Virus record (IMG/VR): IMGVR_UViG_3300011470_000007 | Reading direction: 5' to 3' (one strand) | Length of the DNA stretch: 64,000 bases | Origin: an uncultured virus (IMG/VR IMGVR_UViG_3300011470_000007) | Taxonomy: Duplodnaviria > Heunggongvirae > Uroviricota > Caudoviricetes | Shown here: positions 22,790 to 53,950 of the stretch, piece after piece | How positions within the stretch are numbered: position 1 is the stretch's first letter | Layout of the letters: the number at the start of each line of letters is the position of its first letter | The notes under the pieces: generated by a model | What the model was told of the DNA's origin: nothing | Seen by the model: only the letters and a program-made list of their open reading frames with translations | Database searches by the model: none | Translations under genes and position numbers: made by a program

Positions 22790-23053
22790 GTGATGAGCAT
22801 TGGAAAAGTCCGCACCCCAGGTACTTATACTGAGATTAATACCAACACGCAGCGCACTGGATTGGCAGGTCAAAATCATAAAATTGTGATTGTCACTAAT
22901 GATGTGCCGCCATCGCCAATTACAACACCAGTTGCCATTTATGACAAGACCACTGCTAACAGTAAATTCGGATTAAATAGTGAAGCTGGTCGCATGATTG
23001 ATGCGATGGTGCAACTCTCGCAGGGGGTCAATGTTGAAGGGTTGGGAAAGTAG
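22790..23053 (+). CDS. Tail sheath N-terminal fragment (Mu gpL-like), ends at slippery site
   Basis: VRTPGTYTEINT and FGLNSEAGRM resemble the Mu-type sheath N-terminus; ends G GGA AAG TAG. Confidence 0.75.
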   Translation: MMSIGKVRTPGTYTEINTNTQRTGLAGQNHKIVIVTNDVPPSPITTPVAIYDKTTANSKFGLNSEAGRMIDAMVQLSQGVNVEGLGK

Positions 23054-23469
23054 CTGAGCCTGTCCATACTCTGTATGCCAGCCTTCTTTATCCAACGTTG
23101 ATTGCAAAAGAAGACGCGTATCAGCCGACAGTTAAGCCACTAGATATCACACTTAAAGATATTTTAAAGCAAGGCTATGGTGAAGACGCTTATCAGCCGA
23201 CAGTTAAGCCTCTTGATATCACCATGCGCGATATTGTGTTAAGTAAACAGATTGACGACAAAGACGCTTATCAGCCTACAGTGAAACCACTAGATATCAC
23301 GCTTAAATCAATCGTTAAAAGTGGGAATGTTGATGATAAAGACGCTTATCAACCAACGGTTAAACCGTTAGATATCACGTTAAAACGGGTGGTTGTCAGT
23401 AGCAATGTTGATGGCGATGCGTATCAACCAACAATTAAACCATTAGATATCACATTAAAAACAGTTTAA
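23044..23469 (+). CDS. Repeat domain (5x DAYQPTVKPLDITL), predicted -1 frameshift extension of sheath N-fragment
   Basis: -1 frame open from GGGAAAG; no RBS of its own; homologous to 51340-51762. Confidence 0.8.
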   Translation, partial: GKVAEPVHTLYASLLYPTLIAKEDAYQPTVKPLDITLKDILKQGYGEDAYQPTVKPLDITMRDIVLSKQIDDKDAYQPTVKPLDITLKSIVKSGNVDDKDAYQPTVKPLDITLKRVVVSSNVDGDAYQPTIKPLDITLKTV

Positions 23470-23478
23470 GGACATTTT

Positions 23479-24466
23479 ATGCAAGCAAATATGGGTATGG
23501 CAGGTGAGTTTCGCTGTGTGGTGAAACGAGCCGATGGAAGCGTTAAGACAGATACTGGCTATCAAAAAAATCTGATTTTAAATCAAGGTTTAGATTTTTT
23601 TGGTGGTGGTAATGGTTTAGACATGATGGCGTATTGCGTCATTGGCAGCGGCAATAGCCAACCAAGTTATACACAAAATAAATTAGACACTGCTATCACA
23701 GGGGTTAGTGGTAATAATTTTTCAACTAAACATGACTATGATGCGGCACGAGACGGTAGTCTATACAAAACAAATAGAGTGTGTAAGTACTCCTTTACGG
23801 GACTAAATAATGTCAATGTTAGCGAATTAGGTTTGGCGTCTACTTATAGTAATGCGACTACTTATTTTCTTTGTACTCGTGCATTAATTAAAGACAGTAG
23901 TGGCAACCCAACAACTATCACCGTATTAAGTGGGGAAATTTTAGAAATTTATTACAAGCTATGGGCAGTTTTTGATACCACTGATAAGATTGGTACACTC
24001 AACCTATTAGATGGAGTAGGTGGCAGTGCAACCTATAATTATACTGTTAGACCAGCAACAGTCGGTGTTAAAGACCCCAGTGTTGGTGGAAATTCCTTTG
24101 CTGATAATATAGGGAAGGTTATAAATTATTTATCCCGCTCACTCGAAAGAGGCTTCTATGTATCATCAAGCAGTATAAGTGCTATTGCCTCTTTACCTTC
24201 TAATTTAGTTTCATATGGTAGTGTTTATGAGAGCAGTTTTCCAGTCACTGGTAGTAGTTATACATCTGNNNNNNNNNNTAACATTAAATTGCCCAGTGGA
24301 TAAATTAAATCAGCAAATAGCCTCACTGTTTTTATATTCCACTTTTGGTTCATGGCAGATATCAATTAAATCAACTAATGATAATTTAGGTATTTCAAAA
24401 ACTTCAGCCCAAACCTTATCAATCCCTATTGAATTTTCATGGGGTCGTTACGAGGGCGCATTGTAA
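23479..24466 (+). CDS. Cassette protein 2 (~331 aa, probable virion/adhesin protein; spans N-gap)
   Basis: Collinear with 51772-52767; the 10 Ns replace 18 nt of that copy. Confidence 0.8.
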
Positions 24467-25062
24467 TGTTGCCGCAAGCCACTGACCTTGCAATCGTTGA
24501 GTCAACGGACAACGACAGCCTACTATCACCCCGTAGTAGAGCTTATCCGCTCACCGAGTCTTGGGAATCAGGTGGTGTTGGTTTATCCGACACCAGTCAA
24601 GGCTTAGTCTCGCATATATGGCGCGCATGGACAGATAGCAAGGCTATTTATATTCAGCGCAGTGATTTGCCAAAAGACACCGCAAAAACGCTGTTAGCAG
24701 CGCCCAACATCACCGAGCTTGACTTAACCTTTGACCAAAGTATGCGACCAGTTTTGACTTATGTATCAGGCGGTATCGCAAAACTGTACTGGTACGATAC
24801 GGTGAGTCAATCTCAAACCATCACCGACTTTCCAAATGTACAAAATCCACGTGTGTCGTTAGACGATAAGCGCGCTTTTAACACCGCCAATTCTGATGTG
24901 ATTTTTGCGTATATCAACAATGACCAACTTTGCTGTCGCTATCAACGTGAGCGTTACGGCATCGAGCATGTATTACACCAATTACCACCAAAAACCCAGC
25001 TAGTCAAAATCGGTATGGGTACTGCTAACCGTTTTTTGTTTGACACGATGATTCTAAAATAG
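24466..25062 (+). CDS. Cassette protein 3 (198 aa, probable virion protein)
   Basis: TAATG coupling; near-identical to 52767-53363. Confidence 0.8.
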   Translation: MLPQATDLAIVESTDNDSLLSPRSRAYPLTESWESGGVGLSDTSQGLVSHIWRAWTDSKAIYIQRSDLPKDTAKTLLAAPNITELDLTFDQSMRPVLTYVSGGIAKLYWYDTVSQSQTITDFPNVQNPRVSLDDKRAFNTANSDVIFAYINNDQLCCRYQRERYGIEHVLHQLPPKTQLVKIGMGTANRFLFDTMILK

Positions 25063-25071
25063 GAGAAATTA

Positions 25072-25869
25072 GTGACTATCCAAACCATACTACAACCCCT
25101 TGGACACAGCATCATCGCTCTGTCCTACCCCATCACCGATGAAGCGACTGCCAACGCATGGGTTGACCATCTTGACTTTGTCAGCTCGGCGACTGAACAG
25201 CACGATGCTATTTTAATTGTACCATTTAGCGACATCGACCAAGCGACGACGTTTGCACAATTTGCCAAAGTTAAAGCCTCATATCGTGTGGTTACTGTCT
25301 GCTACCACGGTGCGACAGGCTTTGAGCCAGAGATTGCCGCTGGTGTCGCCGCTGCTATCTCAGCAGAGCTAGACCCTGCCGTGCCATTTAATGGCATCAA
25401 ATTGCCAAATCTGCCTGTGGTCACAGCCGATAAGCGTTTGACTCGCACGCGCATTGAGCAAGCGCTCAATAAGGGCGTGGCAGTAATTGGCTTGGATGCA
25501 CAAGATGACCCTGCGATTGTACGCCTGATTAGCACCTACCAAGTGGATGCCAACGGCTCACCTGATGACTTACTGTTAGATATCAATGGGGCATTAGTCC
25601 TACGTTATGTCCGTCAAGATATTCGCACAGCTGTCATGGCAAACCCGCGGCGTAAAAACACCGAGGCAACTCGTAAAGACCTGCGTAGTCTGATGTTGTC
25701 ACGATGTATCAAGCTTGAAACTGCTGAAATTTTGCAAAATGTCACAAATCGACAAAAAGAGTTGACTGTGGTGCAAGACCCCAATGACAAGACGCGTGCC
25801 AATGCGAGAATCCCTGCGGATTGGGTACGTGGTATGCATATTGTCACTGCGACACTCGATGTGTACTAA
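25072..25869 (+). CDS. Tail sheath C-terminal fragment
   Basis: DPAVPFNG, IEQALNKGV, IVRLISTY, LLDIN...LRYVR; own AGGAG RBS; precedes tube. Confidence 0.88.
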   Translation: MTIQTILQPLGHSIIALSYPITDEATANAWVDHLDFVSSATEQHDAILIVPFSDIDQATTFAQFAKVKASYRVVTVCYHGATGFEPEIAAGVAAAISAELDPAVPFNGIKLPNLPVVTADKRLTRTRIEQALNKGVAVIGLDAQDDPAIVRLISTYQVDANGSPDDLLLDINGALVLRYVRQDIRTAVMANPRRKNTEATRKDLRSLMLSRCIKLETAEILQNVTNRQKELTVVQDPNDKTRANARIPADWVRGMHIVTATLDVY

Positions 25870-25995
25870 TCCCCGCGTCCGCAAAATCCTATTTAAAGGA
25901 TTTTGCCTTGCAAGCCTAAAATTGCGGTGCAATTTTTTAACGGCTCTCAGGTACGTGGTATGCATATTGTCACTGCGACACTTGATGTTTACTAA
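25824..25995 (+). repeat. 46-bp direct repeat of sheath 3' end flanking an 80-bp two-hairpin spacer
   Basis: 25824-25869 vs 25950-25995, 2 mismatches. Confidence 0.9.
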
Positions 25996-26016
25996 CCCAT
26001 AAACTAAGGAAAAACC

Positions 26017-26388
26017 ATGAACGATAATCAACTGGTAGGCGCTATCGTACTGTACGTCAATGGGCGTGAGTTTGACTGCAATAGTGTTAGCCCAAAAATC
26101 ATGGCAGGTCGCAAACCTGTGCCATCAATGAATAAAGAAGGACGTGTCCGCAAAAAAACCAAAACTATCAAGTCTATTGGCTTGTCGCTGGAGGTCTTTG
26201 TGGACGAAATGGAAGATTTTGACTGGGAAAGCGTCGAAGACGCGCGTGTTGTGGTAGAGAGTATTGATGGTGGCAAGCGTACTACCTATATTGACTGTAG
26301 TGTCACTGATGTGTCAGAGAGCTATAAAGTTGATGGTGAGGCAACCCGTAGCCTTGAAATGTTTGCATTGAATAAGATTGAGGAATAA
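26017..26388 (+). CDS. Tail tube protein
   Basis: 123 aa, between sheath and chaperone. Confidence 0.75.
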   Translation: MNDNQLVGAIVLYVNGREFDCNSVSPKIMAGRKPVPSMNKEGRVRKKTKTIKSIGLSLEVFVDEMEDFDWESVEDARVVVESIDGGKRTTYIDCSVTDVSESYKVDGEATRSLEMFALNKIEE

Positions 26389-26390
26389 TA

Positions 26391-26917
26391 ATGGCATTAT
26401 CACAACAAACTACCCTACCTATCGGCATTGAGATTGATGGCAAACGTCATAAAAATGTTACTGTCACTACCTTGACGGTGGCTGATAGCTACAAGGCGTT
26501 ATCCAATGCTAAAACTGATGAATTTATCGGATTGCTTGAGCTTGCGCAGATGACGGTGATTGACGACCTAGGTCGCAATCCTACCTATGATGAGCTAGCA
26601 GGAGCAAGTAGGCTCGATGGCGACCATCTTGCCAATGTGCGTTTTGATCTCGAAAAAAAAGAGATGGCACAAGCGAGCGAGTCAGTCTAGTCTTGGCACT
26701 CATGCGTCTGGGTGTCCCCTACACTGACGCATGGAATATGCCTATCTCATTAGCGTTAGAATTTGTGACTGTGGCAACAGAAAGACAGAAATCTAACGCT
26801 AAATCCAACCAAAATAATGCCACCATGCCTCAAGTCGATGTAGCAACATCGGAAACAGGGACAACCAAATTAATCGCTACACGTCGCAAGTCTAAGCAGG
26901 TGAAAGATGAGCAATAA
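26391..26917 (+). CDS. Tail assembly chaperone (26391-26690) and -1 frameshift extension to 26917
   Basis: A8 run at 26653-26660; -1 frame open into 26693-26917; precedes tape measure. Confidence 0.75.
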
Positions 26918-29078
26918 TAACACTGTCAATCTCAATATCCGTCTCACTGGCAATGCAGGGCGTGAACTACAACAGCTGACACAGCAACAAACCCGTGGTG
27001 TACAGCAAATCAATCAAGGTTGGCGACAAGTGAGTACCACGCAAGGTCAGTATGCCCGTGGACTCAATACGGCACGCACCAGTCAAGAGCAAATCAACCG
27101 TCTAACACAGCAAACAACTCAAAGCCTACAGGCTCAAAGGCGACAAAATGAGTTAATGGTACATCTACTCCGTCAAAATGCGGCTAATGCCAGACGGATG
27201 CAAGAGGCGATTAATAATATCAATCTTCGTAGAACGGTTGGCGATGCAGCAAGGCTCAATCAAAATTTAAATCAATCAATTGGCTTGCTCCAAAGAATGG
27301 GGCAAATGGCGAGAAATGGTTTAAATACTGGCACTGCTATTGTCGGGGGTGTTGCTGCTGGTGCGGCTGTGGCTAATACGGCAATTAAGCCAGCTCGCAG
27401 TTATGATGAGCAAATTGCTCGTGCCAATGCTACCGCAACTGCTGGGCAAGGGTTATCAATACAACAACGTCTTGCTAATAAAGCACAGATTGACCGTATT
27501 GTTATGCAGGCATCAAGAGATGGTGGTGCGACACGAGAGCAAGTACTTGAGGCAGCAAATACACTTTTAGCCAGTGGACAGTATGATACTCGCACATTAG
27601 GGCAGATTTTACCTAACACCTCGAAGGTCGCCTTTGCTAGTGGCGCCAATGCTACTGATGCAGCAAGCGTAGCAATGCAACTACAGATGTTTGGTATTAA
27701 AGATATCAAACGTGGACAAGATATGGCGGTGCGTGGCGGCGAGTTAGGTGGTTTTGAGTATAGTGACATGGCGCAATGGTTAAGTCGTCAGTTACCGCTT
27801 GCCAAAAATGCAGGTTATGCGGGGGAAGAGGGTCTCAAACAAATCGTACTCATGAATCAGTTGGCAAGGCGTGGGGCTGGTACGGCTGATGAGGCTGGGA
27901 ACAATGTGGTCAATTTACTCGCAAAGCTTAGTACCAAAGAGTTTGCTGATGCCATCGGTGATAATATCGATATTCGACAAGGGGATGCTACTAGACTAAA
28001 AGGCAAAGGTAAGAAAAAAACCGAAGTGTTTGACTGGGAGACTTATGCCCTTAGTGAACGAGCCAAAGGCGTGAACAAACTTGATGCCTTTATGAAGCTC
28101 CTTGATCGTGAAATGGCAAATAATGGCAAGTACCAAAAACTCAAATCCGATGCCCAATCTGCCAAAACACCTCAAGATGCTGCCATGAAATTTGCTGCAA
28201 TGGCGGATATGTTACAGGGTACCAAAGTCGGTAATATCTTAGTTGATCGCCAAGCTTTGCAAGCCGCATTGGCTTATCGTAACGGCAGCAGTGATAAGGA
28301 ACGCATTTTAAATGGCTTAAATGGTGCTGATGGTACAGTTGACGGATTGCATAAATTATTCTCTGGCGATGAATGGGCAAATTATCAAACTCGTCAAAAT
28401 GAGCAGATGAATATTAACTATCAAGCCTATCTCAATGTGAATGGTGCGTTAAATACCTTTAATACTGAAATGTCTGGATTTATGGAAAAGCATAGTGGGC
28501 TAGCCACCGCTGCCTATAGTGCCAGTGTTGCATTGGGCGTAGTAGCAGCTGCATCAATGGCAGGTAGTTTGCTTGGTAAGCTTGGCGGTGGCGCAGCAGC
28601 TGGCGGTATCGCTGGTACGGTGGCAAGTCGTGCAGGTGGCGGACTTAGTGGCTTAGTCACGGCAGGTCGTGTCCCTGTGGCTTCAGCAGGTGCAGGTGGT
28701 GTAGCAGGTGCGGTTGTGATTGGTGCGGCAGGTGGCTATGCGATTGGTACGCTAGTGTCAAAAGCTATTGAAGGTACAAAAGCAGGTGATTGGGTTGGTG
28801 AGAAAGTTACGCAATTATGGGCTGGTTTGGGTAGTGAGGAAGCCCAACATGCCTTAGAAGCTCAACAAAAATACGACCAAATGATTCAAGAGCAACAGCA
28901 AACTCGCCTAGCAATTCAACAGACTACCAATGCGATTAAGTCGATTGATTTTAGCCAAAATATCGTGCAGAACATTACCAATCCACAGCCTAATGTCCCA
29001 TTTTTTAACATCCCTGCCCCTACTCGCCCAGTTGCGGATTTGAAGCGGGGGGCGGTTATACCACTTTGGCTAAAGTAG
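26907..29078 (+). CDS. Tape measure protein
   Basis: Ala/Gln-rich 723 aa; GGFEYSDMA, DEAGNNVVNLLAK. Confidence 0.9.
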   Translation: MSNNNTVNLNIRLTGNAGRELQQLTQQQTRGVQQINQGWRQVSTTQGQYARGLNTARTSQEQINRLTQQTTQSLQAQRRQNELMVHLLRQNAANARRMQEAINNINLRRTVGDAARLNQNLNQSIGLLQRMGQMARNGLNTGTAIVGGVAAGAAVANTAIKPARSYDEQIARANATATAGQGLSIQQRLANKAQIDRIVMQASRDGGATREQVLEAANTLLASGQYDTRTLGQILPNTSKVAFASGANATDAASVAMQLQMFGIKDIKRGQDMAVRGGELGGFEYSDMAQWLSRQLPLAKNAGYAGEEGLKQIVLMNQLARRGAGTADEAGNNVVNLLAKLSTKEFADAIGDNIDIRQGDATRLKGKGKKKTEVFDWETYALSERAKGVNKLDAFMKLLDREMANNGKYQKLKSDAQSAKTPQDAAMKFAAMADMLQGTKVGNILVDRQALQAALAYRNGSSDKERILNGLNGADGTVDGLHKLFSGDEWANYQTRQNEQMNINYQAYLNVNGALNTFNTEMSGFMEKHSGLATAAYSASVALGVVAAASMAGSLLGKLGGGAAAGGIAGTVASRAGGGLSGLVTAGRVPVASAGAGGVAGAVVIGAAGGYAIGTLVSKAIEGTKAGDWVGEKVTQLWAGLGSEEAQHALEAQQKYDQMIQEQQQTRLAIQQTTNAIKSIDFSQNIVQNITNPQPNVPFFNIPAPTRPVADLKRGAVIPLWLK

Positions 29079-29085
29079 TTTAATA

Positions 29086-29130
29086 TCGGAAACTTGCCAC
29101 CTAACTATCAAACTCAAAACCTGTCAATCT
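29086..29130 (+). promoter_or_regulatory. Late promoter 4
   Basis: TCGGAAactTGCCAC, 24 nt, CAATCT; upstream of baseplate operon. Confidence 0.7.
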
Positions 29131-29163
29131 AGCAACATTGGCAGGTTTTTTATTGAGATAAGC

Positions 29164-30381
29164 ATGGCGTGGAAAGACACACTCTTTGAAGCAACATTCA
29201 GACAAATACCGTTTGAATGCACGGCGATGAATGAAACACGCTCAAAGTCTGTAGCTATCATGCAGTCACCTTATAGTGACAGTGCCTTTGTCACTGATAT
29301 GGGTAATGACGCACGTCGTTATTCGATAACTGCGTTTCTGGAAGGCGTAGATTATGAGATTTACCGAGATAATCTAATTATCGCCTTGGATATGCAAGGC
29401 AAAGGCGAACTGGTACACCCACTTTACGGGTCGCTTGATGTTCAAGTGCTAGACTACAGTGTCAAGCATGACCCTGATGTTGTTGATAGCTGCATGATTG
29501 ACATTAATTTTGTGATTGCAGTATCAGCAAGTGACAACAAAGCGCTGTTTATCCCTACACCTATCCCAGCGGTAGAAGAACAACCAACGGCTGTCATACT
29601 TGATAAACCAGCCGAAACGCTTGAAGTGTATCAACAGCAGCTTGAACAAATGAGCACGTCTGAAGCCGTTGAAATAAAGCGAACAATACCTGAGAAAATT
29701 CGTGCAGAAATCAAACGTGCCAGAGAGATATTGCAAGTCAATGGTCAACAGGTCAATGATTTATTTAACCCGCCTGATTGGCTAAATGGCATTGTCAATG
29801 ATACGATTGGACTCATGCACGATATACCGCTGGATGCCGACCCAATGGCAAACTGGCGCAGAGTCATCAATAAAGTCAAAAGCATTGGTGATATGTTTGG
29901 TGATACCGATATCGCGCCACTACGCTTTGTCGGTGCTGTGTTACCTGTAGCACTAGAATCTCAAACAGTGCTTGAACTTATCAAGTTAGACACGGCACAA
30001 AACGTGCTAACACCGTTAGAGCTAATAACGGCAAATAATGTCGTGCGTCAAAGTATCAATGACGCTATCACGTTGATTCGTCGAATTGACCCAGAGCCAT
30101 CCGTGACAATTAATGTCCCAAAAATCATATTAGATACACGTAAGCAGGTGGGTGCCCTTAAACAAGCAGCGGCAATCTTGCAGCAGCTTACCAATGATGC
30201 GGTCAATAAAAAGCCGCCACTGATACAGTACACCGTCAAGCGCAACACGACTTTAAGGCTTTTAGCTCATCGTCTCTATGCTGACCACAACCGTACTGAT
30301 GAGCTACTTAAACTCAATAAAAACATTGTCAACCCTGCCATCATTACCGCAGGTACTGAGTTAAATATTTATGTCAGATAA
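29164..30381 (+). CDS. DNA circularization protein (Mu gpN-like)
   Basis: MAWKDTL.EATFR..PF, GELVHPLYG, LAHRLYAD..R. Confidence 0.9.
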   Translation: MAWKDTLFEATFRQIPFECTAMNETRSKSVAIMQSPYSDSAFVTDMGNDARRYSITAFLEGVDYEIYRDNLIIALDMQGKGELVHPLYGSLDVQVLDYSVKHDPDVVDSCMIDINFVIAVSASDNKALFIPTPIPAVEEQPTAVILDKPAETLEVYQQQLEQMSTSEAVEIKRTIPEKIRAEIKRAREILQVNGQQVNDLFNPPDWLNGIVNDTIGLMHDIPLDADPMANWRRVINKVKSIGDMFGDTDIAPLRFVGAVLPVALESQTVLELIKLDTAQNVLTPLELITANNVVRQSINDAITLIRRIDPEPSVTINVPKIILDTRKQVGALKQAAAILQQLTNDAVNKKPPLIQYTVKRNTTLRLLAHRLYADHNRTDELLKLNKNIVNPAIITAGTELNIYVR

Positions 30382-31537
30382 TCAGCCAAGTACGACTGAT
30401 AGCACAGATAGTAGCCAAACATTGCAACGTCTTGGCAATATCATCTTGACCGTCGGTGATGTCGAATGCCGCCAATGGGACGATATTACTATTGATAGTG
30501 ACATTGGCATACCTGCCGATGGCTGGTCATTTGCATGGTTAGATAAAACTATCGCAAATTTGCCAGATAGCGTCAAAAGTGGTGCGGTGTGCCAGATTGA
30601 TATCGAAAACAAAGAGGTACGTGAGACCATATTAGTGGGTGTTATCGATAAAATACAGCAGACTGTAAGCCGTGGGCAGATATCTGTCGTAATATCTGGT
30701 CGAGACTTAGCAGGGCAATTGCTGGATACATCTGCACCCATCGCACAGGGTCAAAACATGACGCTAGAAGAGATTATCGGGCAGTTTATCCTAGGAGGTG
30801 ACTTAGGGTCATTGCCTTGGAACGTCAAAACCAATGAAAACTCATTAAAAGCCAAAACAGGCGTAGAAGACGGCGAAAGCGTTTGGGATGCTATCAATAA
30901 AGCCGCTGAAGCATCTGGACAATATGTTTGGATGTCATCGGATGGGGCTATCTGTATTGGTAATCCATTCGATGTTGAACAACCAAAAGAGCCGCCTGTT
31001 TTTATTTTAAATGAAGATAATGCTCATAATAACTGTTTAAATCTTAGCTACAGTGAGGATTTATCCAATGCTTATAGTATTGTCGAAGCCATTGGACAGG
31101 ATGATAAAGGCAAGAACTTTAGGGGCGCGGCTAATGATGACAGAATGACTATCAAACGTCGCAAAATTTTGAGTGACTCTCGTGCTGAAAACCAAAACGA
31201 TGCCATGCAGTATGCGCAAAAAGCCTTGAGAGATAGTTGGCTTGATGCTTATGAATGCTCAATTTTGACCAACCATTGGGGATGGATGTCTAAGGTATTT
31301 GCAACAGGTTGGAGGGTAAAAGTAATCAGCACTATCATGCCAAGAGCCAGTGGGGATTGGGTTATCTATGGTCGCACGCTCAAGCTCACTCGCAATGAGG
31401 GCAAAACCACCGAATTACGTCTTAAAAAATATCAAGAATGGATGCAACCTGTACAACATGTTGATTTGATTAAAGATGCTAAACCTAAGAAGTCGAAGAA
31501 GCAGACCACTATCAAATCAAAGCGGAGTAAGTCTTAA
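30371..31537 (+). CDS. Baseplate hub (Mu gpP/gp44-like)
   Basis: IDSDIGIPADGWSF, SGRDLAGQLLD.SAP. Confidence 0.88.
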   Translation: MSDNQPSTTDSTDSSQTLQRLGNIILTVGDVECRQWDDITIDSDIGIPADGWSFAWLDKTIANLPDSVKSGAVCQIDIENKEVRETILVGVIDKIQQTVSRGQISVVISGRDLAGQLLDTSAPIAQGQNMTLEEIIGQFILGGDLGSLPWNVKTNENSLKAKTGVEDGESVWDAINKAAEASGQYVWMSSDGAICIGNPFDVEQPKEPPVFILNEDNAHNNCLNLSYSEDLSNAYSIVEAIGQDDKGKNFRGAANDDRMTIKRRKILSDSRAENQNDAMQYAQKALRDSWLDAYECSILTNHWGWMSKVFATGWRVKVISTIMPRASGDWVIYGRTLKLTRNEGKTTELRLKKYQEWMQPVQHVDLIKDAKPKKSKKQTTIKSKRSKS

Positions 31538-31992: not shown

Positions 31993-31993
31993 C

Positions 31994-45711: not shown

Positions 45712-45859
45712 TCTTGTTTTTAACCAATAAAAACGTGTCGCAGTGGACACGTTTTTTATGCAAACAAGACTGGCTATCCTTTGCCACCAGAGTGATACTG
45801 TCGCTACACCCAACGGCAACCGCCTGAAATCGGAAGCCCTAAAAAAAAGGAAAACCACG

Positions 45860-46117
45860 ATGAAAACTTTAAAATCTAGCCAATATACCATTTACATTAA
45901 CGGCTCAAACGTTACCCTTGTAGACAACCACAGCCGACTACCACAGAGCCTATCAAACCTAATTATTTCTACCCACGACATTTTGTTTTATATGGCAACT
46001 CAAGCCATGAGCAACGACGAAAAAGCCGACCGCCTAAAACAGCTTATTATCGGTACGCACGATGATAACCTTGACCGACTGAACAAAATCACTTACCAAG
46101 ATTTTAAAATCGCCTAA
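45860..46117 (+). CDS. Hypothetical protein, 85 aa
   Basis: AAGGA RBS; upstream inverted repeat near 45729-45757. Confidence 0.55.
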   Translation: MKTLKSSQYTIYINGSNVTLVDNHSRLPQSLSNLIISTHDILFYMATQAMSNDEKADRLKQLIIGTHDDNLDRLNKITYQDFKIA

Positions 46118-46132
46118 TTATCCCTAACCATA

Positions 46133-46163
46133 AAAAGACCGCAATTATTGATTGCGGTCTTTT
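46133..46163. promoter_or_regulatory. Second AAAAGACCGCAA-N7-TTGCGGTCTTTT palindrome upstream of gpV
   Basis: Arms identical to 38711-38741. Confidence 0.65.
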
Positions 46164-46222
46164 GCTTATTTTACCCATTGCTCACTCATGCCACACTTTA
46201 CCCAATCCTTAGGTACTGAGCC

Positions 46223-46777
46223 ATGACTGCGCAAATTTTATCCGAACAACAACGCCGCTTACATAACATTGCCACCATTGGCACTGTGTTTGACGTCAAC
46301 CCAGACGACCAAACCATGCGCCTAGACGTCGGCGATAACCAAACCGACTGGCTGCCTATACCCGCCTTGGCGGCTGGACAAGTACGTGTATGGCGTTGCC
46401 CATCCGTTGGTGAACAATTTTTGTTAGTCAGTCCAAGTGGTGAGCTTGCCAACGCTATCCCTGTTTTATCGCTTTACAGCAATCAACACCCAAGCCCAAG
46501 CACAGATGAAAACGAAATTCGCGTCCAATTTAATGACCAGGATTATCTCAGTGTCAAAACAGACGATAGCGACCTTACTATCAAAATTACCAATACCACC
46601 ATCATTTCTGAAGGTAGTATCACGCTTGATACGCCAACTGTTACGATGACAGGAAATTTGGAAGTTGATGAATCCATCCATGCTAAAAAAGATATTGTTG
46701 CTGGCGTCATCAGTCTTATAAAACACTTGCACGGCAAAGTCATGGGCGGTAACTCTACCACAGGAGCACCGCAATGA
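46223..46777 (+). CDS. Baseplate spike (gpV)
   Basis: TDWLP...AG....W.CPSVGEQ...SPSG; HLH tip. Confidence 0.92.
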   Translation: MTAQILSEQQRRLHNIATIGTVFDVNPDDQTMRLDVGDNQTDWLPIPALAAGQVRVWRCPSVGEQFLLVSPSGELANAIPVLSLYSNQHPSPSTDENEIRVQFNDQDYLSVKTDDSDLTIKITNTTIISEGSITLDTPTVTMTGNLEVDESIHAKKDIVAGVISLIKHLHGKVMGGNSTTGAPQ

Positions 46778-47157
46778 TGGATATCAATTTTGCCATGGGC
46801 ATGAGCCGTACCACGGGCGCACTATTATCACCTGACAACCATCTAAAACAATCCATCTACGATGTGTTGATGACCCCGATTGGCAGCCGTTTGCTGCGCC
46901 GTGAGTATGGCAGTTTGATTCCGTTTTTGATTGACCAGCCAGTGAACCCAGCGACCAAACTAAAAATGATGGCAGCCATTGCCACCGCTATTATCAAATG
47001 GGAACCACGGGTCAAAGTACGTCAAGTCCAATTATCCATGAATACGGACGCTACCAATGACACAGGCAACACAGGCGTTAACGTATTACTAGATTTGCGC
47101 CGTAGCGACAATACCAAATTGCCTACCACTTTGACACTGGCACGGGGGGCATCATGA
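46774..47157 (+). CDS. Baseplate wedge (gpW)
   Basis: HLKQSI.D.L.TPIGSR..RREYGS, WEPR. Confidence 0.93.
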   Translation: MMDINFAMGMSRTTGALLSPDNHLKQSIYDVLMTPIGSRLLRREYGSLIPFLIDQPVNPATKLKMMAAIATAIIKWEPRVKVRQVQLSMNTDATNDTGNTGVNVLLDLRRSDNTKLPTTLTLARGAS

Positions 47158-48107
47158 GCGGCTATACCAACAGCTATAATGCCATCAATTTAGCAGGATT
47201 GCCCTTGCCAAACGTGCTAGAGCCGATAGACTTTGAGCTTGAGGTCACCCGTATTCGTGCCGAGCTATCTGCAAAATTTGCCGATGATCATCCCATTCAA
47301 GCCGCATTAAGCCTTGAATCCGAGCCGATTAACAAAATTATCGAAGTCCTCGCCTACCGCTATGTATTAAAGGTTAGCGAAATTAATCGCAAAGCCCGTA
47401 GCTTGATGTTGGCATTCGCTACAGGGTCAGACCTTGACCACATTGGCGTAACCTATTACCGCCTCGAGCGAAAACTCATTCAAGCCGAGGACAAAACCGC
47501 CATCCCACCAAAACCCGCTATTTATGAAAGCGATGACGACTACCGCTACCGCCTAGCCTTGTCCGTTGAAGCGATGACCATGGCAGGGTCTGCAGGTAGT
47601 TATGAATTTCATGCCTTGTCAGCCAGTGCCGAAGTGCACAGTGTGACCGTCTATAGCCCTGCTCCTACTGAAGTGGATGTTTATTTGGCGGGGCAAATTG
47701 ATGGCGACGTACTTGTGCAAGCAAACAAGACTGTAGGCGTGTCTGCCCAAGCGGTGACTGATGTATATAACGCGCTTGTCGCCGATGACGTGCGACCTTT
47801 AACGGATTTAGTGCGTGTCAACTCTGCTACCGCCAAAGCCTACCGTATCGATGCTGTCGTCTATGTCAAAAATGGGATTAGCCCACAGTTGATTTTGAGC
47901 CAAGGCATGACCGCATTACGCCAATATTTGACAGAAAATTTTAAACCAAACGCGCGCGTGGCAACCAGCCGTATCATTGGGGCGTTAGACGTGATGGGTG
48001 TTAGTCGCATTGAACTCAACGAACCAAAAACCGATGTCATGACCGCCATTGGCGAAGTGGCTCATTGCACAGGCTATAACATCATTGCCAAATCGGAGGG
48101 TACATGA
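47154..48107 (+). CDS. Baseplate assembly protein (gpJ)
   Basis: LESEP, ATGSDLD, AGSAGSYEFHA, VRPLTD. Confidence 0.93.
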   Translation: MSGYTNSYNAINLAGLPLPNVLEPIDFELEVTRIRAELSAKFADDHPIQAALSLESEPINKIIEVLAYRYVLKVSEINRKARSLMLAFATGSDLDHIGVTYYRLERKLIQAEDKTAIPPKPAIYESDDDYRYRLALSVEAMTMAGSAGSYEFHALSASAEVHSVTVYSPAPTEVDVYLAGQIDGDVLVQANKTVGVSAQAVTDVYNALVADDVRPLTDLVRVNSATAKAYRIDAVVYVKNGISPQLILSQGMTALRQYLTENFKPNARVATSRIIGALDVMGVSRIELNEPKTDVMTAIGEVAHCTGYNIIAKSEGT

Positions 48108-48676
48108 TTTATACCGCCGACCCTACCCAGCCACCAATGGCTATCAATGATCGCTATCAATCGCTACTCCCCGCCAATAGCCGTCAACTGGAGCATGCGC
48201 TAGCAGGCGCAACCGCCAAGCTTGAGCCAATACCAGTACCGTTTGACACTATCTGGGACGTAGACACCGCCCCCGATAGTTTGTTGCCTTACCTTGCCTA
48301 TGCTTGGAGCGTGGACGAATGGAACGACAACTGGACAGCCGAGACCAAACGCCAAGTCATCCGTGACAGTCTTTGGGTGCATGAGCGTAAAGGAACACTT
48401 AGTGCCGTCAAACGCTCACTGGCAGCCATGAATTATGACGCTAGCATCATTGAGTGGTTTCAAAAATCACCACGTGGCAAGGCAGGTACTTTTAGCGTCG
48501 AGGTACACCCCACCACGGGTATTATCGCTGACAATATTTTACAGATACGAGCCATGATAGACGCGGTCAAACGCTTATCCGCTCACTACGACGTTTATCT
48601 AGGTTACACCTTACCCGCTGTTATTGCTGCCTATGCCGTCCCCGTGGTCGGCGTTGAACTTACTGTTTCCACCTAA
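48104..48676 (+). CDS. Tail protein I (gpI)
   Basis: SLLPAN, LLPYLAYAWSVDEW, H.RKGT. Confidence 0.93.
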   Translation: MIYTADPTQPPMAINDRYQSLLPANSRQLEHALAGATAKLEPIPVPFDTIWDVDTAPDSLLPYLAYAWSVDEWNDNWTAETKRQVIRDSLWVHERKGTLSAVKRSLAAMNYDASIIEWFQKSPRGKAGTFSVEVHPTTGIIADNILQIRAMIDAVKRLSAHYDVYLGYTLPAVIAAYAVPVVGVELTVST

Positions 48677-48688
48677 CTAAAGGACTTT

Positions 48689-49114
48689 ATGATGTCAAAC
48701 TTATGTCAACCCCAAGGCGTTATTTTAGCCATTGCACTTGCTGTCGCTATGCCTTTTTATCCAATCGAATTCAAAGAAGACGGACAAACCACAATTCCAA
48801 ATCTAGTCAATATCGACGGCACAGGGCATTCAGGCAATGCCGAGCTGGTCGTCAATGACGGGCTATTACGCACCCATCAAGACAGCATGGTATTTGCGGT
48901 CGATAACACAGGTGGCGAAGAGCTTGCGCTCAACATCCATATCGCCAAACAACCGATTGTTGATATTGCCAAAGCCAATGCTGACAAAGCCAATTATTTT
49001 ATCGCAAGTTATCCACTAACCATTAAAGCTGACGAAAAACGTCACTTAGAACTACGACTTATCAATGGTCAATACGTGCTCAGTGACCGTGGCCTAGACT
49101 TACCAACCGTTTAA
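48689..49114 (+). CDS. Hypothetical protein between gpI and fibre
   Basis: AAGGA RBS, 141 aa. Confidence 0.65.
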   Translation: MMSNLCQPQGVILAIALAVAMPFYPIEFKEDGQTTIPNLVNIDGTGHSGNAELVVNDGLLRTHQDSMVFAVDNTGGEELALNIHIAKQPIVDIAKANADKANYFIASYPLTIKADEKRHLELRLINGQYVLSDRGLDLPTV

Positions 49115-49134
49115 TCAACTGACTTAATACGACT

Positions 49135-50661
49135 ATGAGCTATCAATTACTCTTAACAAACGCTGGCGCTGCCAAAATCGCTACCGCCAGTAATGCAGGT
49201 GGGACACCCTTGCATATTACTGACTTTGCAGTGGGACAAGGCGTTAATGTCGACTTCAGTACACGCCTTGACAAGCAAACCTTGGTCGCCAAGCGTTACC
49301 AAGGCAAGGTAGAGTCTGTCAATCTTGTCGCCCCAAACAAGTACGAGATTGTGTGTGTCGTCCCTGTCGATGTGGGTGGTTTTACCATTCGTGAGTTTGG
49401 ATTGATTGATAGTGATGGCGTATTGGTGTGGGTTGGCAGTCTACCAGAGGTACAAAAACCAGACGCTACCAGCACTGCCGCGGTTGATTATCGACTCAAA
49501 GCGGTGGTACAGATTGATAACCCTGCTGTGTCGATTGTCGTTGATACCAACGCTATCACAGCCACACAGTCGTGGGTCAATGCCAATTTTGCGGCCATTG
49601 GTCATAACCATCAGGATATGCTTGATCGCTTAACTGCCCTTGAAAATCGTATTTTTGAGGCGATTGCTGTTGGTGGCATTTACGCGACTGCAAAACTTTA
49701 CGCCAAGGGTCAAGATGTTCACGCCGAACTTGGCTATGGCGTTTGGGCACTTTACGCCCAAAGTAAAATTTTAGCTGGATTTTCAACCATTGCTACTGAT
49801 GATAATAAATTCAAAACGATGGGAAATGTTTTTGAAATTGGTTCAGAAATTGAGAATCAAAAAGCCATTGTGGCGCAATTTTGGAAGCGTTTGCCAAATG
49901 ACTACATTGCTCCAACGTTTGATATGTATTACACGTCAGACGAAGCAGGATTAAACCGCGTCACAGTTATTGGCGAAGAAACGCCGATTTATCTATGGTT
50001 AAACGTGACAAACGCCACTCAACCCATCCAAATAATCAGCTTCTTGTCAGATGCAAGCGGCACCATTCACTTAACCAATTCAAATATTAACCACCCAAAA
50101 ACCGTTAATAATGGCAAAACATTACTCGTCTCAATTCCACAGGATAATTACAGTGTAGATAACCCTGTCACGTTAAATTGGGGGTTCGTCTTAAACGACC
50201 CAACTGTCGATGTCGAGACAGCTATCAATGCACCGCTTGCGATTAATAATACAGTCAGTGATGCGCCTATTATAGATAGCAACCCTACAGTTACCACCAG
50301 AAGCATTGATGTAAATTGCTACGTTGAAGTAGGGGCATTTGGTGTGTCAAGCGAAGCAATTAGTTGGCGTGAAATTGGCGAAGTGATTGGTAATAATCCA
50401 GAAAATATTAGCCAGAAAGTAAACACTAAAAATGATGAAATCGTGTTAGTAGGCTTTCCGCAAATCAATACAGGTCTATCTGATTTATCAATTACACAAC
50501 ATCCAACAAAAACCGACTCAAGTTACACCTACCCAACAAATAATATTTCATTCGCGAACGGTCAGCTTCGATTGTTTAAAAACCCGATACCAAATGACAT
50601 CAAATTAGATGTGGTTGGTAAAACATTAATGAACACATTAACCATTACTTATAAAATTTAG
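49135..50661 (+). CDS. Tail fibre (gpH-like)
   Basis: LLTNAGAAK, VGGFTIREFGL N-terminal domain; beta-rich C-terminus. Confidence 0.88.
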   Translation: MSYQLLLTNAGAAKIATASNAGGTPLHITDFAVGQGVNVDFSTRLDKQTLVAKRYQGKVESVNLVAPNKYEIVCVVPVDVGGFTIREFGLIDSDGVLVWVGSLPEVQKPDATSTAAVDYRLKAVVQIDNPAVSIVVDTNAITATQSWVNANFAAIGHNHQDMLDRLTALENRIFEAIAVGGIYATAKLYAKGQDVHAELGYGVWALYAQSKILAGFSTIATDDNKFKTMGNVFEIGSEIENQKAIVAQFWKRLPNDYIAPTFDMYYTSDEAGLNRVTVIGEETPIYLWLNVTNATQPIQIISFLSDASGTIHLTNSNINHPKTVNNGKTLLVSIPQDNYSVDNPVTLNWGFVLNDPTVDVETAINAPLAINNTVSDAPIIDSNPTVTTRSIDVNCYVEVGAFGVSSEAISWREIGEVIGNNPENISQKVNTKNDEIVLVGFPQINTGLSDLSITQHPTKTDSSYTYPTNNISFANGQLRLFKNPIPNDIKLDVVGKTLMNTLTITYKI

Positions 50662-50806
50662 TTGAGCAAACAGATGACTAAAAACACTTATCACAATGCC
50701 ATCCGCGACCTTGTTGACCTAAGCAGTCGCAAGGGTAAAACAAGGCAATACATTCGTTATGAAATTGGCATTTAAATTAACCTATACACCATAACAAGGA
50801 GCTAAC

Positions 50807-51349
50807 ATGGCTTTACACCACGGCATCACCGCCCAAGAACTCACCCAAGGCATTTTGCCCATGCGCAATGCCAACATCAGCGTCATCGGTCTAATCGCCA
50901 CGTCAACCGATGCCGATGCCACCATGTACCCAGCCGATACCCCAGTATTACTAACAGGTATCACCAAAGACAATATTGATAAAGCAGGCACCCAAGGCAC
51001 GCTCAAAACAGCATTGCAGACCATCCGTGACATCACAAACCCAACCGTGGTTGTCATGCGTGTGAGCCATGCTGATAACATCGATGTGTTAGACGAGCTG
51101 CTCGCTTGTCAATCACGATTAGGGGTAATACCAAAAATCCTAGGTGCGCCTGAAATTGATACCCCTGCTATGGTGCGCAAGTTGGTCAGCATTGCCAAGC
51201 GCCGTCGCGGCTTTGTCTATGCGTCGCCACGCAAAGATGACGGCACATTGATTACTGATAAAACTGAGATTGCGGCATATCGCGATACCTTTGGCGACCG
51301 TGAATTGCATTTGATTGAAAATCAGTGGGGGAAGCCGCTGGGAAAGTAG
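50807..51349 (+). CDS. Tail sheath FI, N-terminal half, ends at slippery site
   Basis: HHGI, AGTQGTL, GVIPKILGAP, YRDTFGDREL match first half of P2 FI; ends G GGA AAG TAG. Confidence 0.9.
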   Translation: MALHHGITAQELTQGILPMRNANISVIGLIATSTDADATMYPADTPVLLTGITKDNIDKAGTQGTLKTALQTIRDITNPTVVVMRVSHADNIDVLDELLACQSRLGVIPKILGAPEIDTPAMVRKLVSIAKRRRGFVYASPRKDDGTLITDKTEIAAYRDTFGDRELHLIENQWGKPLGK

Positions 51350-51762
51350 CTGCTGGTAAGCGTGTTGTCTATGCCAGCCGTCTTTATCCAACATTAATTG
51401 AAAAAGAAGACGCGTATCAGCCGACAGTTAAGCCACTGGACATTACGCTTCAAGATATCTTAAAACGTGGTTATGGTGAAGATGCTTATCAGCCGAACAT
51501 CAAGCCGTTAGATATCACCATGCGGAACATTGTGTTAAGTAAACAGGTTGACGATAAAGATGCTTATCAGCCGACAATCAAGCCATTGGACATCACATTA
51601 GCTAAAGTATTTGATGGCAAGGTATATGTAGATGATGCGTATCAACCAACGATTAAACCGCTTGATATCACATTAAAACGAGTTGTGGTGAGTAGCAATG
51701 TTGATGGTGACGCATATCAACCAACAGTTAAGCCACTAGATATCACATTAAAAACAGTTTAA
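51340..51762 (+). CDS. Repeat domain (5x DAYQPT.KPLDITL), predicted -1 frameshift extension
   Basis: -1 frame open from GGGAAAG; homologous to Mu copy. Confidence 0.8.
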   Translation, partial: GKVAAGKRVVYASRLYPTLIEKEDAYQPTVKPLDITLQDILKRGYGEDAYQPNIKPLDITMRNIVLSKQVDDKDAYQPTIKPLDITLAKVFDGKVYVDDAYQPTIKPLDITLKRVVVSSNVDGDAYQPTVKPLDITLKTV

Positions 51763-51771
51763 GGAATTATT

Positions 51772-52767
51772 ATGCAAGCAAATATGGGTATGGCAGGTGA
51801 GTTTCGTGTTGTAGTGAAACGAGCCGATGGCAGTAAAAAGCTAGATACAGGCTATCAAAAGAATTTGATTCTAAATCAAGGATTGGACTTTTTTGGCGGT
51901 GACAATGGTGACAATATGACGGCGTATTGCGTCATTGGTAGTGGTAATAGTCAACCAAGTTATACGCAAAATAAATTAGATACTGCTATCACAGGAGTTT
52001 TTGGTGATTATTTTTCAACTAAATATGATTATGATGTAGCACGAGATGGTAATTTATACAAAGCCAATAAAGTAAAAAAATACTCCTTCAGTGGCTTAAA
52101 TAACATCAATATTAGCGAAGTTGGTTTAGCTTCCACTTATAGTAATACCTCAGATTATTATCTTTGTACTCGTGCATTAATTAAAGATAGTAAAGGCAAC
52201 CCCACAACGATTACTATTTTAAATGGTGAAATCTTAGAGATTTATTACAAATTATGGGCAGTTTTTGATACCACTGATAAGATTGGTACACTCAACCTAT
52301 TAGACGGAGTAGGTGGCAGTGCAACATATAATTATACTGTTAGACCAGCAACAGTCGGTGTTACAGACCCTGGGGTTGGTGGAAATTCCTTTGCTGATAA
52401 TATAGGGAAGGTTATAAATTATTTATCCCGCTCAATCGAAAGAGGCTTCTATGTATCATCAAGCAGTATAAGTGCTATTGCCTCTTTACCTTCTAATTTA
52501 GTTTCATATGGTAGTGTTTATGAGAGCAGTTTTCCAGTCACTGGCAGTAGTTATACATCTGGCTCATATAAAAAAACATTAACATTAAATTGCCCAGTGG
52601 ATAAATTAAATCAGCAAATAGCCTCACTGTTTTTATATTCCACTTTTGGTTCATGGCAGATATCAATTAAATCAACTAATGATGATTTAGGTATTTCAAA
52701 AACTTCAACCCAAATACTATCCATCCCTATTGAAGTTTCATGGGGTCGTTACGAGGGTGCGTTGTAA
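51772..52767 (+). CDS. Cassette protein 2 (331 aa)
   Basis: AAGGA RBS; homolog of 23479-24466. Confidence 0.85.
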   Translation: MQANMGMAGEFRVVVKRADGSKKLDTGYQKNLILNQGLDFFGGDNGDNMTAYCVIGSGNSQPSYTQNKLDTAITGVFGDYFSTKYDYDVARDGNLYKANKVKKYSFSGLNNINISEVGLASTYSNTSDYYLCTRALIKDSKGNPTTITILNGEILEIYYKLWAVFDTTDKIGTLNLLDGVGGSATYNYTVRPATVGVTDPGVGGNSFADNIGKVINYLSRSIERGFYVSSSSISAIASLPSNLVSYGSVYESSFPVTGSSYTSGSYKKTLTLNCPVDKLNQQIASLFLYSTFGSWQISIKSTNDDLGISKTSTQILSIPIEVSWGRYEGAL

Positions 52768-53363
52768 TGTTGCCGCAAGCCACTGACCTTGCAACCGTTG
52801 AGTCAACGGATAATGGCATCCTACTATCGCCACGCAGTAGAGCCTATGCACTCAGTGAGTCGTGGGAGCAAGGCGGTGTTGGCTTGTCCGACACCAGTCA
52901 AGGCTTAGCGTCGCATACATGGCGCGCATGGACGGATAGCAAGGCTATTTATATCCAGCGCAGTGATTTGCCAAAAGACACCGCAAAAACGCTGTTAGCA
53001 GCGCCCAACATCACCGAGCTTGACTTAACATTTGACCAAAATATGCGACCAGTTTTGACTTATGTATCAGGTGGTATCGCAAAACTGTACTGGTACGATA
53101 CGGTGAGTCAATCTCAAACCATCACCGACTTTCCAAATGTCAAAAATCCGCGGGTGTCACTTGACGACAAGCGCGCATTTAACACCGCCAATTCTGATGT
53201 GATTTTTGCCTATATCAACAATGACCAACTTTGCTGTCGCTATCAACGTGAGCGATACGGCATCGAGCACGTATTACACCAATTACCACCCAAAACCGCG
53301 CTAGTCAAAATCGGCATGGGTACTACTAACCGTTTTTTGTTTGATACCAAGGAGCCCAAATGA
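52767..53363 (+). CDS. Cassette protein 3 (198 aa)
   Basis: TAATG coupling; homolog of 24466-25062. Confidence 0.85.
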   Translation: MLPQATDLATVESTDNGILLSPRSRAYALSESWEQGGVGLSDTSQGLASHTWRAWTDSKAIYIQRSDLPKDTAKTLLAAPNITELDLTFDQNMRPVLTYVSGGIAKLYWYDTVSQSQTITDFPNVKNPRVSLDDKRAFNTANSDVIFAYINNDQLCCRYQRERYGIEHVLHQLPPKTALVKIGMGTTNRFLFDTKEPK

Positions 53364-53950
53364 CCCCAATTATCGCCACCGCCCTCGCCTTACGGGCAAA
53401 AATTGATGAGACCGACCCAGCCTCATTTACCAAGTCAATCAGCAATGTCGCCATCTCAACCGTTGATGGTATTTCATATCCACGCACATGGGACTTGGAA
53501 GACCCGGACACTGAAGTCGGTTACTTAAACGCCAATGAAGTCACCAGTCTCATCCAGCACGAAGGCTTTCGCTTTTGGGGCAATCGCACCTGTAGCGACG
53601 ACCCCCGCTTTGCCTTTGAGACCACCACACGCACCGCCCAATTTTTGCTTGATACCATCATTGCAGGCTGTTTTCCCTTCATTGACAAGCCGCTCACGCC
53701 TATTTTAGCCCGTGACATCATCGACAGTATCAACGCAAAGTTACGCCAATTCGTCGCCAAAGGTTGGCTCATCGGTGCAAGCTGCTGGTACAACGAAGAG
53801 ATTAACAATCCCCAAGATTTAAGCCAAGGCATTATGTATATCGACTACGACTATACCCCTGTGCCAACGCTAGAAAACTTGTTTTTGAACCAGCGTATCA
53901 CCGACCGCTATTTGGTTGACTTTAGCAAACTAATCGCCCAAACGGCGTAA
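53360..53950 (+). CDS. Tail sheath FI, C-terminal half
   Basis: ALALRAKID, GFRFWGNRTCSDDP, IDYDYTPVP.LENL; own AAGGAG RBS. Confidence 0.93.
   Translation: MTPIIATALALRAKIDETDPASFTKSISNVAISTVDGISYPRTWDLEDPDTEVGYLNANEVTSLIQHEGFRFWGNRTCSDDPRFAFETTTRTAQFLLDTIIAGCFPFIDKPLTPILARDIIDSINAKLRQFVAKGWLIGASCWYNEEINNPQDLSQGIMYIDYDYTPVPTLENLFLNQRITDRYLVDFSKLIAQTA

Follow-up and report, generated by a model that had tools for sequence, protein, structure and literature searches.

Two co-resident prophages with a split tail-sheath gene, a putative -1 frameshift site and an exchangeable appendage cassette

We analysed a 64,000-nucleotide stretch of DNA from an uncultured virus (IMG/VR record IMGVR_UViG_3300011470_000007, called the window in the following), which holds two complete and unrelated prophages of one bacterium, a Mu-like one at ~1.2-35 kb and a P2-like one at ~35.8-59.4 kb. 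In both of them the gene for the contractile tail sheath is divided into a small N-terminal and a large C-terminal open reading frame (ORF), here named sheath-N and sheath-C, and three further ORFs, forming a cassette of ~2.0 kb, are located between the two. Both sheath-N ORFs end with xxG_GGA_AAG_TAG, i.e., with a slippery heptamer of the X_XXY_YYZ type that is phased in the zero frame, and the first cassette ORF is found in the -1 frame. Based on this gene anatomy and its conservation in relatives, we propose, with a probability of about 0.68, that the sheath consists of two polypeptides and that -1 frameshifting would add an exchangeable adhesin or fibre anchor to the smaller one. The genes and sites concerned are listed here, with sizes in amino acids (aa); all are on the plus strand.

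22790..23053 (+): Mu-like sheath-N, the small tail-sheath piece, 87 aa (phrog_5292, E 1.9e-20; phrog_165 positions 11-82 of 493)
23044..23050 (+): slippery heptamer G_GGA_AAG in the sheath-N frame, with TAG directly after it
23044..23469 (+): -1-frame repeat ORF, copy A, 141 aa, with a linker, a YASxLYP segment and five 14-residue repeats
23479..24466 (+): gene 2, copy A, fibre protein of the phrog_4176 type, with 10 N at 24269-24278
24466..25062 (+): gene 3, copy A, 198 aa, phrog_4950 type, predicted partial beta-propeller
25072..25869 (+): Mu-like sheath-C, the large piece, 265 aa, with its own GGAG ribosome-binding site and a GTG start
50807..51349 (+): P2-like sheath-N, the small tail-sheath piece, 180 aa (phrog_23, E 3.5e-19)
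51340..51346 (+): slippery heptamer G_GGA_AAG in the sheath-N frame, with TAG directly after it
51340..51762 (+): -1-frame repeat ORF, copy B, 140 aa, with a linker, a YASxLYP segment and five repeats
51772..52767 (+): gene 2, copy B, 331 aa (phrog_4176, E 1.7e-44)
52767..53363 (+): gene 3, copy B, 198 aa from an internal ATG at 52767 (phrog_4950, E 1.3e-48)
53360..53950 (+): P2-like sheath-C, the large piece, 196 aa (phrog_23 positions 286-472, E 3e-66; Phage_sheath_1C, E 3.3e-12)

The two cassette copies (23074-25043 and 51370-53344) are 88.0% identical over 1987 columns (blastn) and are preceded by an exact shared 14-mer (23043-23056 and 51339-51352), inside which the heptamer is located. 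At the right edge, the homology stops within the last codons of gene 3, where the copies diverge and each supplies the ribosome-binding site and start for its own sheath-C, with the junction GGAG...GTG in copy A and AAGGAG...ATG in copy B, the ATG of the latter overlapping the stop of gene 3. The repeat ORFs of both copies encode five copies of a 14-residue motif. Gene 2 of copy A contains a run of 10 N (24269-24278), representing either masking or a real defect, and its reading frame differs on either side of the run; before it, the two gene 2 copies share 88.6% amino-acid identity over 263 codons. With ratios of nonsynonymous to synonymous substitution rates (dN/dS) of 0.18 for the repeat ORF in the -1 frame, 0.18 for gene 2 (before the N run) and 0.15 for gene 3, the cassette ORFs are under purifying selection between the window copies. 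Neither Pfam nor PHROG revealed a nuclease, transposase, intron or intein family in the cassette, and the cassette proteins matched no Pfam family. A preliminary description of this DNA had already reported the gene order in both prophages, the sizes of the sheath pieces (87+265 and 180+196 aa), the extent of homology from the shared 14-mer to the tail of gene 3, the separate ribosome-binding sites of both C pieces and a cassette free of transposases and endonucleases, all of which we confirm here. The slippery heptamer within the shared 14-mer and the -1 frame of the repeat ORF were absent from it.

In copies A and B alike, the repeat ORF is in the -1 frame relative to sheath-N and open from the heptamer onwards. 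In copy A, the -1 frame is closed by a stop that precedes the heptamer by three codons (G001, see below, has the same sequence), and the first possible start of its repeat ORF is a TTG at residue 19 that is not accompanied by a Shine-Dalgarno sequence. The YASxLYPTLI segment, which lies upstream of this TTG, is nonetheless conserved. According to passages of the review by Atkins et al., G_GGA_AAG is highly shift-prone in Escherichia coli and is used in the g-t tail genes of some viruses (PMC5009743). We consider it most likely from the reading frames that the repeat ORF is covalently joined to sheath-N through a -1 ribosomal frameshift at G_GGA_AAG. The cassette had previously been described as a tail-appendage module that docks on the sheath; the appendage character is retained here (through phrog_4176 and phrog_4950), whereas mere docking is probably not the case, because the first ORF has no start and is most likely fused by frameshifting.

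The heptamer was followed in relatives that were retrieved with the sheath-C sequences. An alignment of the Mu-like sheath-C gave 65 loci, for which a flank of 4 kb was searched for the N piece: 38 are split with an N piece found, 15 have single ORFs of 356-374 aa, and for the remaining 12, in which the match coincides with the start of the C ORF, the 4-kb flank yielded no N piece. For the P2-like sheath-C, the 80 nearest loci were kept of 598 relatives, with seven split, 72 single-ORF and one cut by the end of the locus; the seven split loci are the closest relatives, with 65-99% identity. The heptamer is present in frame in 24 of the 38 split Mu-like loci, and 22 of these 24 continue with a -1 ORF of 120-449 aa, mostly ending 3-28 nucleotides before sheath-C. 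It is absent anywhere in the gene from all nine unsplit (single-ORF) Mu-like relatives that were checked. A total of 33 heptamer sites was compared (27 Mu-like and 6 P2-like, several of them representing one contig fetched twice). The heptamer is invariant in all 33, while the codon that gives its first G varies (TTG 20, GTG 5, CTG 5, CCG 2, GCG 1), that is, between five codons and four amino acids. This is conservation of the nucleotides and not of Gly-Lys. In 32 of the 33 sites, the zero frame is closed by a stop within the next 0-11 codons. In the -1 ORFs of 11 relatives, the first in-frame start was located at residue 14-61 or was absent. Variants with the extension in frame 0 (L015, L095/L111 and L107) show, at the level of the gene, a physical fusion of the extension to sheath-N. 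Several sites are followed by a GC hairpin after a spacer of 5-6 nucleotides, with z scores of -1.6 to -3.4 (G001, L009, L010, L013, L089 and L090), as calculated against shuffles preserving single-base composition only, and L013 and L014 have T_TTT_TTG with a GC hairpin. A split sheath is also found in Bracchivirus U2F1 from the human skin virome (MF417929.1; L164, 1442-4070), in which T_TTT_TTG and G_GGA_AAG stand in tandem at the end of the first piece; the annotation of this record lists a 'putative major tail sheath' and two hypothetical proteins.

Both pieces are assigned to sheath families. The Mu-like sheath-C matches phrog_165 positions 230-491 (E 2.1e-49) and Pfam Phage_sheath_1C (E 1.7e-9), a family (PF17482) that is above its cut-off in the Mu-like as well as the P2-like sheath-C, and residues 21-187 of the P2-like sheath-C align to residues 215-381 of the pyocin sheath 3j9q (E 3.9e-23); the P2-like sheath-N gave no hits among PDB sequences. 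Together, the P2-like N and C pieces cover unsplit relatives of 394-408 aa from end to end with nothing missing (the preliminary description had them adding up to nearly a full FI), with the N piece corresponding to the first half and the split position to a loop of the unsplit proteins. The Mu-like pieces likewise align with the single-ORF relatives of 356-374 aa, in which the N and C parts are linked by a Pro-rich loop of 10-25 aa, and phrog_165 positions 83-229 are absent from them. The split points differ between the two sheaths (87+265 aa in the Mu-like and 180+196 aa in the P2-like prophage). The split with both halves intact persists in relatives that are only 41-60% identical. The split sheath is conserved among Mu-like and P2-like relatives and looks functional, in line with the earlier impression from the two window copies. 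Among the cultured phages of the phage collection, none is nearer than 34.5% to the Mu-like sheath-C.

Comparison with two further sequences, G001 and G002, shows that the content of the slot is exchanged while its surroundings are kept. Provirus G002 is 96-97% identical to the Mu-like phage of the window on both sides of the slot, which is occupied by a different gene of 279 aa, and its -1 frame is open from an identical heptamer directly into this gene. G001 carries a third cassette in both its phages, consisting of a single -1-frame ORF with a Gly-rich linker, which begins at the Mu-like heptamer and extends as far as the sheath-C ribosome-binding site, and in which the first in-frame start appears dozens of codons in (judged by eye); the end of this cassette is identical before the P2-like sheath-C of G001. 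With gene 2 as the query, no gene 2 was found in G001 or G002. In both, the first ten codons of the Mu-like sheath-C (MTPIIATALA) are native to the P2-like sheath, which means that cassettes have moved from P2-like to Mu-like phages along with a piece of the flank. More broadly, 29 extensions fall into 12 similarity clusters, two of which are found on both sheath types. The movement between phage families that had been suspected from the window is thus borne out by shared extension families and by the P2-like codons in the Mu-like sheath-C.

Genes 2 and 3 match phrog_4176 and phrog_4950, both annotated as 'tail fiber', and are homologous (26-30% identity) to the adjacent distal fibre genes gp050 and gp051 of Xanthomonas phage Pagan, a pradovirus. 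Relatives of gene 2 were found in 98 phage records, all below 60% identity and mainly from phages of Xanthomonas, Stenotrophomonas and Xylella. Among the homologues of gene 2 (n=456) and gene 3 (n=311, mostly called as 198 aa), those with a named source are from Moraxella, Moraxellaceae, Enhydrobacter and Psychrobacter. Within the best 120 of 311 for gene 3, the closest 68 are 86-95% identical and a second group 53-60%; within the best 120 of 456 for gene 2, identities are 56-87%, with a variable region in the C-terminal half. In the genome collection, gene 2 alone as the query gave 186 pattern matches and no relatives, and an alignment query for gene 2 gave five loci. The homology of genes 2 and 3 to fibre genes supports the interpretation of the cassette as a tail-appendage module. 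The model of gene 2, with a mean predicted local distance difference test (pLDDT) of 70, has one standout fold match, 9h4p_BD (Z 10.0, root-mean-square deviation 4.7 over 215 residues; the next match has Z 5.0), a 953-residue chain of the Haloferax virus HFTV1 tail, of which gene 2 would match a part; Foldseek gave nothing at E <= 0.001 for this model, the listed rows having a TM of ~0.1 and thus carrying no meaning. Gene 3 (pLDDT 70, residues 1-48 disordered) is modelled as a partial beta-propeller with the lectin SapL1 as the top fold match (Z 12.1), and since 140 chains reach Z 8, it is the fold class alone that is supported by the model.

The slots of other loci contain different proteins. 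Of seven -1 ORFs submitted to Pfam, one matched, to LRR_5 (BspA-type leucine-rich adhesin repeats), and the slot of L124 includes a 744-aa protein with its own start and a SASA carbohydrate-esterase domain; from their domain matches, the leucine-rich repeats and the esterase fit a role in cell-surface binding. In L124 (969-3985; also in L120 and L109), sheath-N has a 30-aa zero-frame tail, the heptamer is absent, and the slot of 2.2-3.7 kb holds a 730-757-aa protein with its own start and a second gene. L089 (4423-4977) combines a -1 extension of 125 aa with an own-start ORF in the slot whose match to glycosyltransferase-2 (GT2) is weak (E 5e-4) and does not reach the Pfam cut-off, and L009 (4340-4990) combines a -1 extension of 25 aa with an own-start ORF of 216 aa without a family match.

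The products of gene 2, gene 3 and the repeat ORF, the latter in the following called the adaptor, were modelled as a complex with the adaptor as the scored partner, as the preliminary description had proposed for the three cassette proteins. The complex score was 0.72, compared to 0.46 for the best of three controls, with runs agreeing in at least 13% of contacts; the score mark is reached by 116 of 157 solved complexes and by 2 of 215 mismatched pairs. The confident interface is formed between adaptor residues 6-18, the conserved stretch right behind the shift site, and the C-terminal strand of gene 3. Replacement of gene 2 resulted in a score of 0.46, which fits an interface with gene 3. 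In copy A, the modelled gene 3-binding segment lies upstream of any start codon. The complex model supports binding of the adaptor to gene 3, and, from homology together with modelling, the cassette proteins may be present in the virion and may bind receptors.

The following scheme could accommodate these observations. The contractile sheath of both prophages would be built from small N and large C polypeptides, each with its own translation signals, and the gap between the two genes would serve as a slot for exchangeable appendage cassettes. Most ribosomes would stop at the end of sheath-N, while a fraction would slip back by one base at G_GGA_AAG into the first cassette ORF, yielding a product composed of sheath-N, a flexible linker and a variable extension. 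This extension might be an adhesin domain itself in some loci; in the window, it would be an adaptor composed of the YASxLYP segment and the five 14-residue repeats, which would recruit the gene 3 product (with its partial beta-propeller, a lectin-like fold) and the gene 2 product (a variable fibre protein). Some of the sheath subunits would thereby bear side fibres or adhesins on the exterior of the tail. The extension is predicted to leave the sheath fold at a loop, which in the Mu-like family would be the place where larger sheaths hold an insertion domain (phrog_165 positions 83-229), a placement that draws on the domain boundaries of T4 gp18. Cassettes might be swapped between co-resident phages by recombination at short conserved flanks, with the heptamer region forming the left flank and the ribosome-binding site with the first sheath-C codons the right one.

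A number of observations weigh against this scheme. The RNA structure downstream of the two window sites is not significant (z +0.86 and -0.33), and a GTG at 51325, upstream of the heptamer in copy B, is a possible independent start of the repeat ORF. The heptamer is missing from 14 of the 38 split Mu-like loci, and of four such loci that were read, three have a 30-aa sheath-N tail and fibre genes with their own starts; the fourth has a 151-aa -1 ORF behind a hairpin and no canonical heptamer. L009, L134 and L107 have kept the heptamer, but with -1 ORFs of only 25, 64 and 3 aa. The own fold of the adaptor is uncertain (pLDDT 33-37), and its five repeats were not placed. The comparison of the Mu-like sheath-C with an unsplit P2-like sheath gave an hhalign probability of 0.3%, and the split points did not map to a common fold. 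Finally, in the Psychrobacter loci L098 and L099 the three-gene cassette is found outside of sheath genes and with its own ATG, the YASxLYPTLI segment being part of a stand-alone cassette protein there; given this neighbourhood, the cassette also serves a non-sheath tail context. In L098 (2865-3524) and L099, the cassette follows an unannotated ORF of 219 aa ending with ...GELP, and holin-like and endolysin-like ORFs come after it.

The stand-alone cassettes of L098 and L099, the lack of a significant downstream RNA structure at the window sites and the own-start genes in the slots (the 216-aa ORF of L009, the ORF with the weak GT2 match of L089 and the SASA-domain gene of L124) could also be understood if the gap between the sheath genes were a permissive slot without recoding, i.e., a place that tolerates the insertion of fibre genes and morons. 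Translation of the repeat ORF would then either begin at an internal or non-canonical start or not occur, and the fibre would be attached elsewhere, e.g., at the baseplate. However, this would leave unexplained why the heptamer is identical at all 33 sites when the codon before it varies, why 22 of 24 loci have long -1 ORFs without a start, why in-frame fusion variants exist, and why the segment ahead of the first start is conserved and is modelled to bind gene 3, and we regard such a permissive slot as unlikely. If, on the other hand, the fusion is made, the shift might occur in transcription, with the RNA polymerase adding or dropping a base, and a run of seven T beside or in place of the heptamer in L013, L014 and L164 is suggestive in this respect. 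Slippage-prone sites typically have runs far longer than three bases, whereas GGGAAAG offers runs of three bases only, and the zero frame always divides the heptamer as X_XXY_YYZ, a phasing for which polymerase slippage has no need. Transcriptional slippage instead of ribosomal frameshifting is thus very improbable.

Two further explanations do without a fusion product. The cassette could be a selfish insertion that broke the sheath genes, or a sign of decay, with both prophages being tail-defective; the sheath ORFs are interrupted, after all, and in copy A the frame of gene 2 is not kept across the N run. Against this stand the split with intact halves in distant relatives, a ribosome-binding site and start for each C piece, the purifying selection on the cassette ORFs and the missing nuclease, transposase or intron signature. 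Moreover, the remaining structural genes of both prophages are all intact, the Mu-like one encoding a repressor, transposases A and B, Gam, head genes, tube, tape measure and baseplate, and the P2-like one a portal, terminase, scaffold, capsid, baseplate, a 508-aa fibre, tube, tape measure and D-like genes. We see hardly any room for decay or selfish splitting under these circumstances. The interruption might alternatively be removed at the level of RNA or protein, by an intron or intein, restoring a one-piece sheath. No support for such a removal of the cassette was found: the cassette consists of three protein-coding ORFs under selection, Rfam gave no match at gathering score in the whole window, and the halves are differently arranged in the two sheath families, so that the probability of this explanation is negligible.

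The proposed frameshift fusion to one piece of a two-piece sheath has parallels in known systems. As in gpG/gpGT of lambda and other tail-assembly chaperones, a -1 shift near the end of a tail gene would add a C-terminal part, and the heptamer type G_GGA_AAG is common to the window sites and to the g-t genes of some viruses (in passages of PMC5009743). The chaperone product leaves the tail, however, whereas here it would be the N piece of the sheath that is shifted, and the added part would be a variable and exchangeable appendage. Closer in outcome are the immunoglobulin (Ig)-like C-terminal extensions that are added by frameshifting to capsid or major tail proteins in T3, Lactobacillus phage A2 and the Listeria phages A118, A500 and PSA, and for which in-frame or out-of-frame landing by chance after non-homologous recombination has been described (in the corresponding part of PMC5009743). 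Both cases share a short and an extended structural protein decorating the virion, which is deduced from the genes in our case, and a mix of -1 and in-frame variants. The Ig-like extensions belong to single-gene capsid or tube proteins, whereas the extension described here is located in the middle of a sheath gene, so that the C half needs its own start, and the sheath extensions include a multi-gene fibre module. Two sheath polypeptides, a small and a large one, are known from type VI secretion (TssB/TssC or VipA/VipB), as would be the case here, where separate ORFs with their own starts are known from the genes. In contrast to TssB/TssC, the pieces match phage sheath families only (phrog_165, phrog_23 and Phage_sheath_1C), their context is that of complete prophages, the sheath genes are separated by a variable cassette, and the two phages have different split points.

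The adjacent pair of genes 2 and 3 resembles Pagan gp049-gp051, where gp049 ends in about five short repeats (by eye), similar to the adaptor. In pradoviruses, these repeats terminate an ordinary fibre protein that is anchored via a T7-type fibre, whereas here the anchor would be the N piece of the sheath. Free-standing homing-endonuclease cassettes of T4-like phages likewise are mobile inserts that split an essential gene into two expressed halves (a prediction in our case); unlike these, the insert described here has no endonuclease and comprises structural proteins that are predicted to be joined to the upstream half by recoding. A full-text literature search returned no paper in which a phage sheath gene is described as split or frameshifted, and in the passages of the review by Atkins et al. 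(PMC5009743) the only mention of 'sheath' is unrelated. While virion decoration made by frameshifting is known, its combination with a two-piece sheath and an exchangeable cassette would be new.

If our interpretation is correct, the tail sheath would join the virion proteins that are decorated via programmed frameshifting, and a phage sheath could work as two polypeptides, as it does in type VI secretion. It would also mean that contractile tails have a second and exchangeable site of host recognition, with a bearing on host-range prediction and on phage and tailocin engineering, for which the slot would offer a natural display position with tunable occupancy. It would further explain why gene callers report a 'truncated sheath' and a 'hypothetical protein', e.g., in the Bracchivirus U2F1 record. 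It is tempting to generalise, at even odds in our estimate, that whole Mu-like clades and some P2-like phages form their sheath as a polymer of two subunits, in which a fixed slippery site sets the fraction of small subunits that carry an outward-facing adhesin, enzyme or fibre anchor. Such a 'sheath display', with its cassette traded between unrelated phages that share a host, would provide host-surface specificity not only at the baseplate but over the full length of the tail and would represent a widespread, undescribed tail architecture.

The sequencing runs sharing most with the window contain at most 0.33 of the sampled words. No contig from four sequencing runs joins across the cassette, and these contigs prove neither the absence of a joined form nor expression. 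The middle of gene 2 (~51960-52700) is barely covered by them, and loose contig ends gather at the edges of the cassette (51314-51354 and 53359-53400). Next to the Mu-like sheath-C, a direct repeat of 50 nucleotides with 94% identity (25824-25873 and 25950-25998) was found, through which the end of this gene is duplicated before the tube gene; G002 has a single copy of the repeat, and its alignment skips window positions 25874-25949. Canonical -1 sites of tail-chaperone genes are present in both prophages as well: A_AAA_AAA at 26654 in the Mu-like one, with the -1 frame open for 87 aa to 26917, and G_GGT_TTT/T_TTT_TTC at 54950-54959 in the P2-like one, with the -1 frame open for 62-63 aa to 55141.

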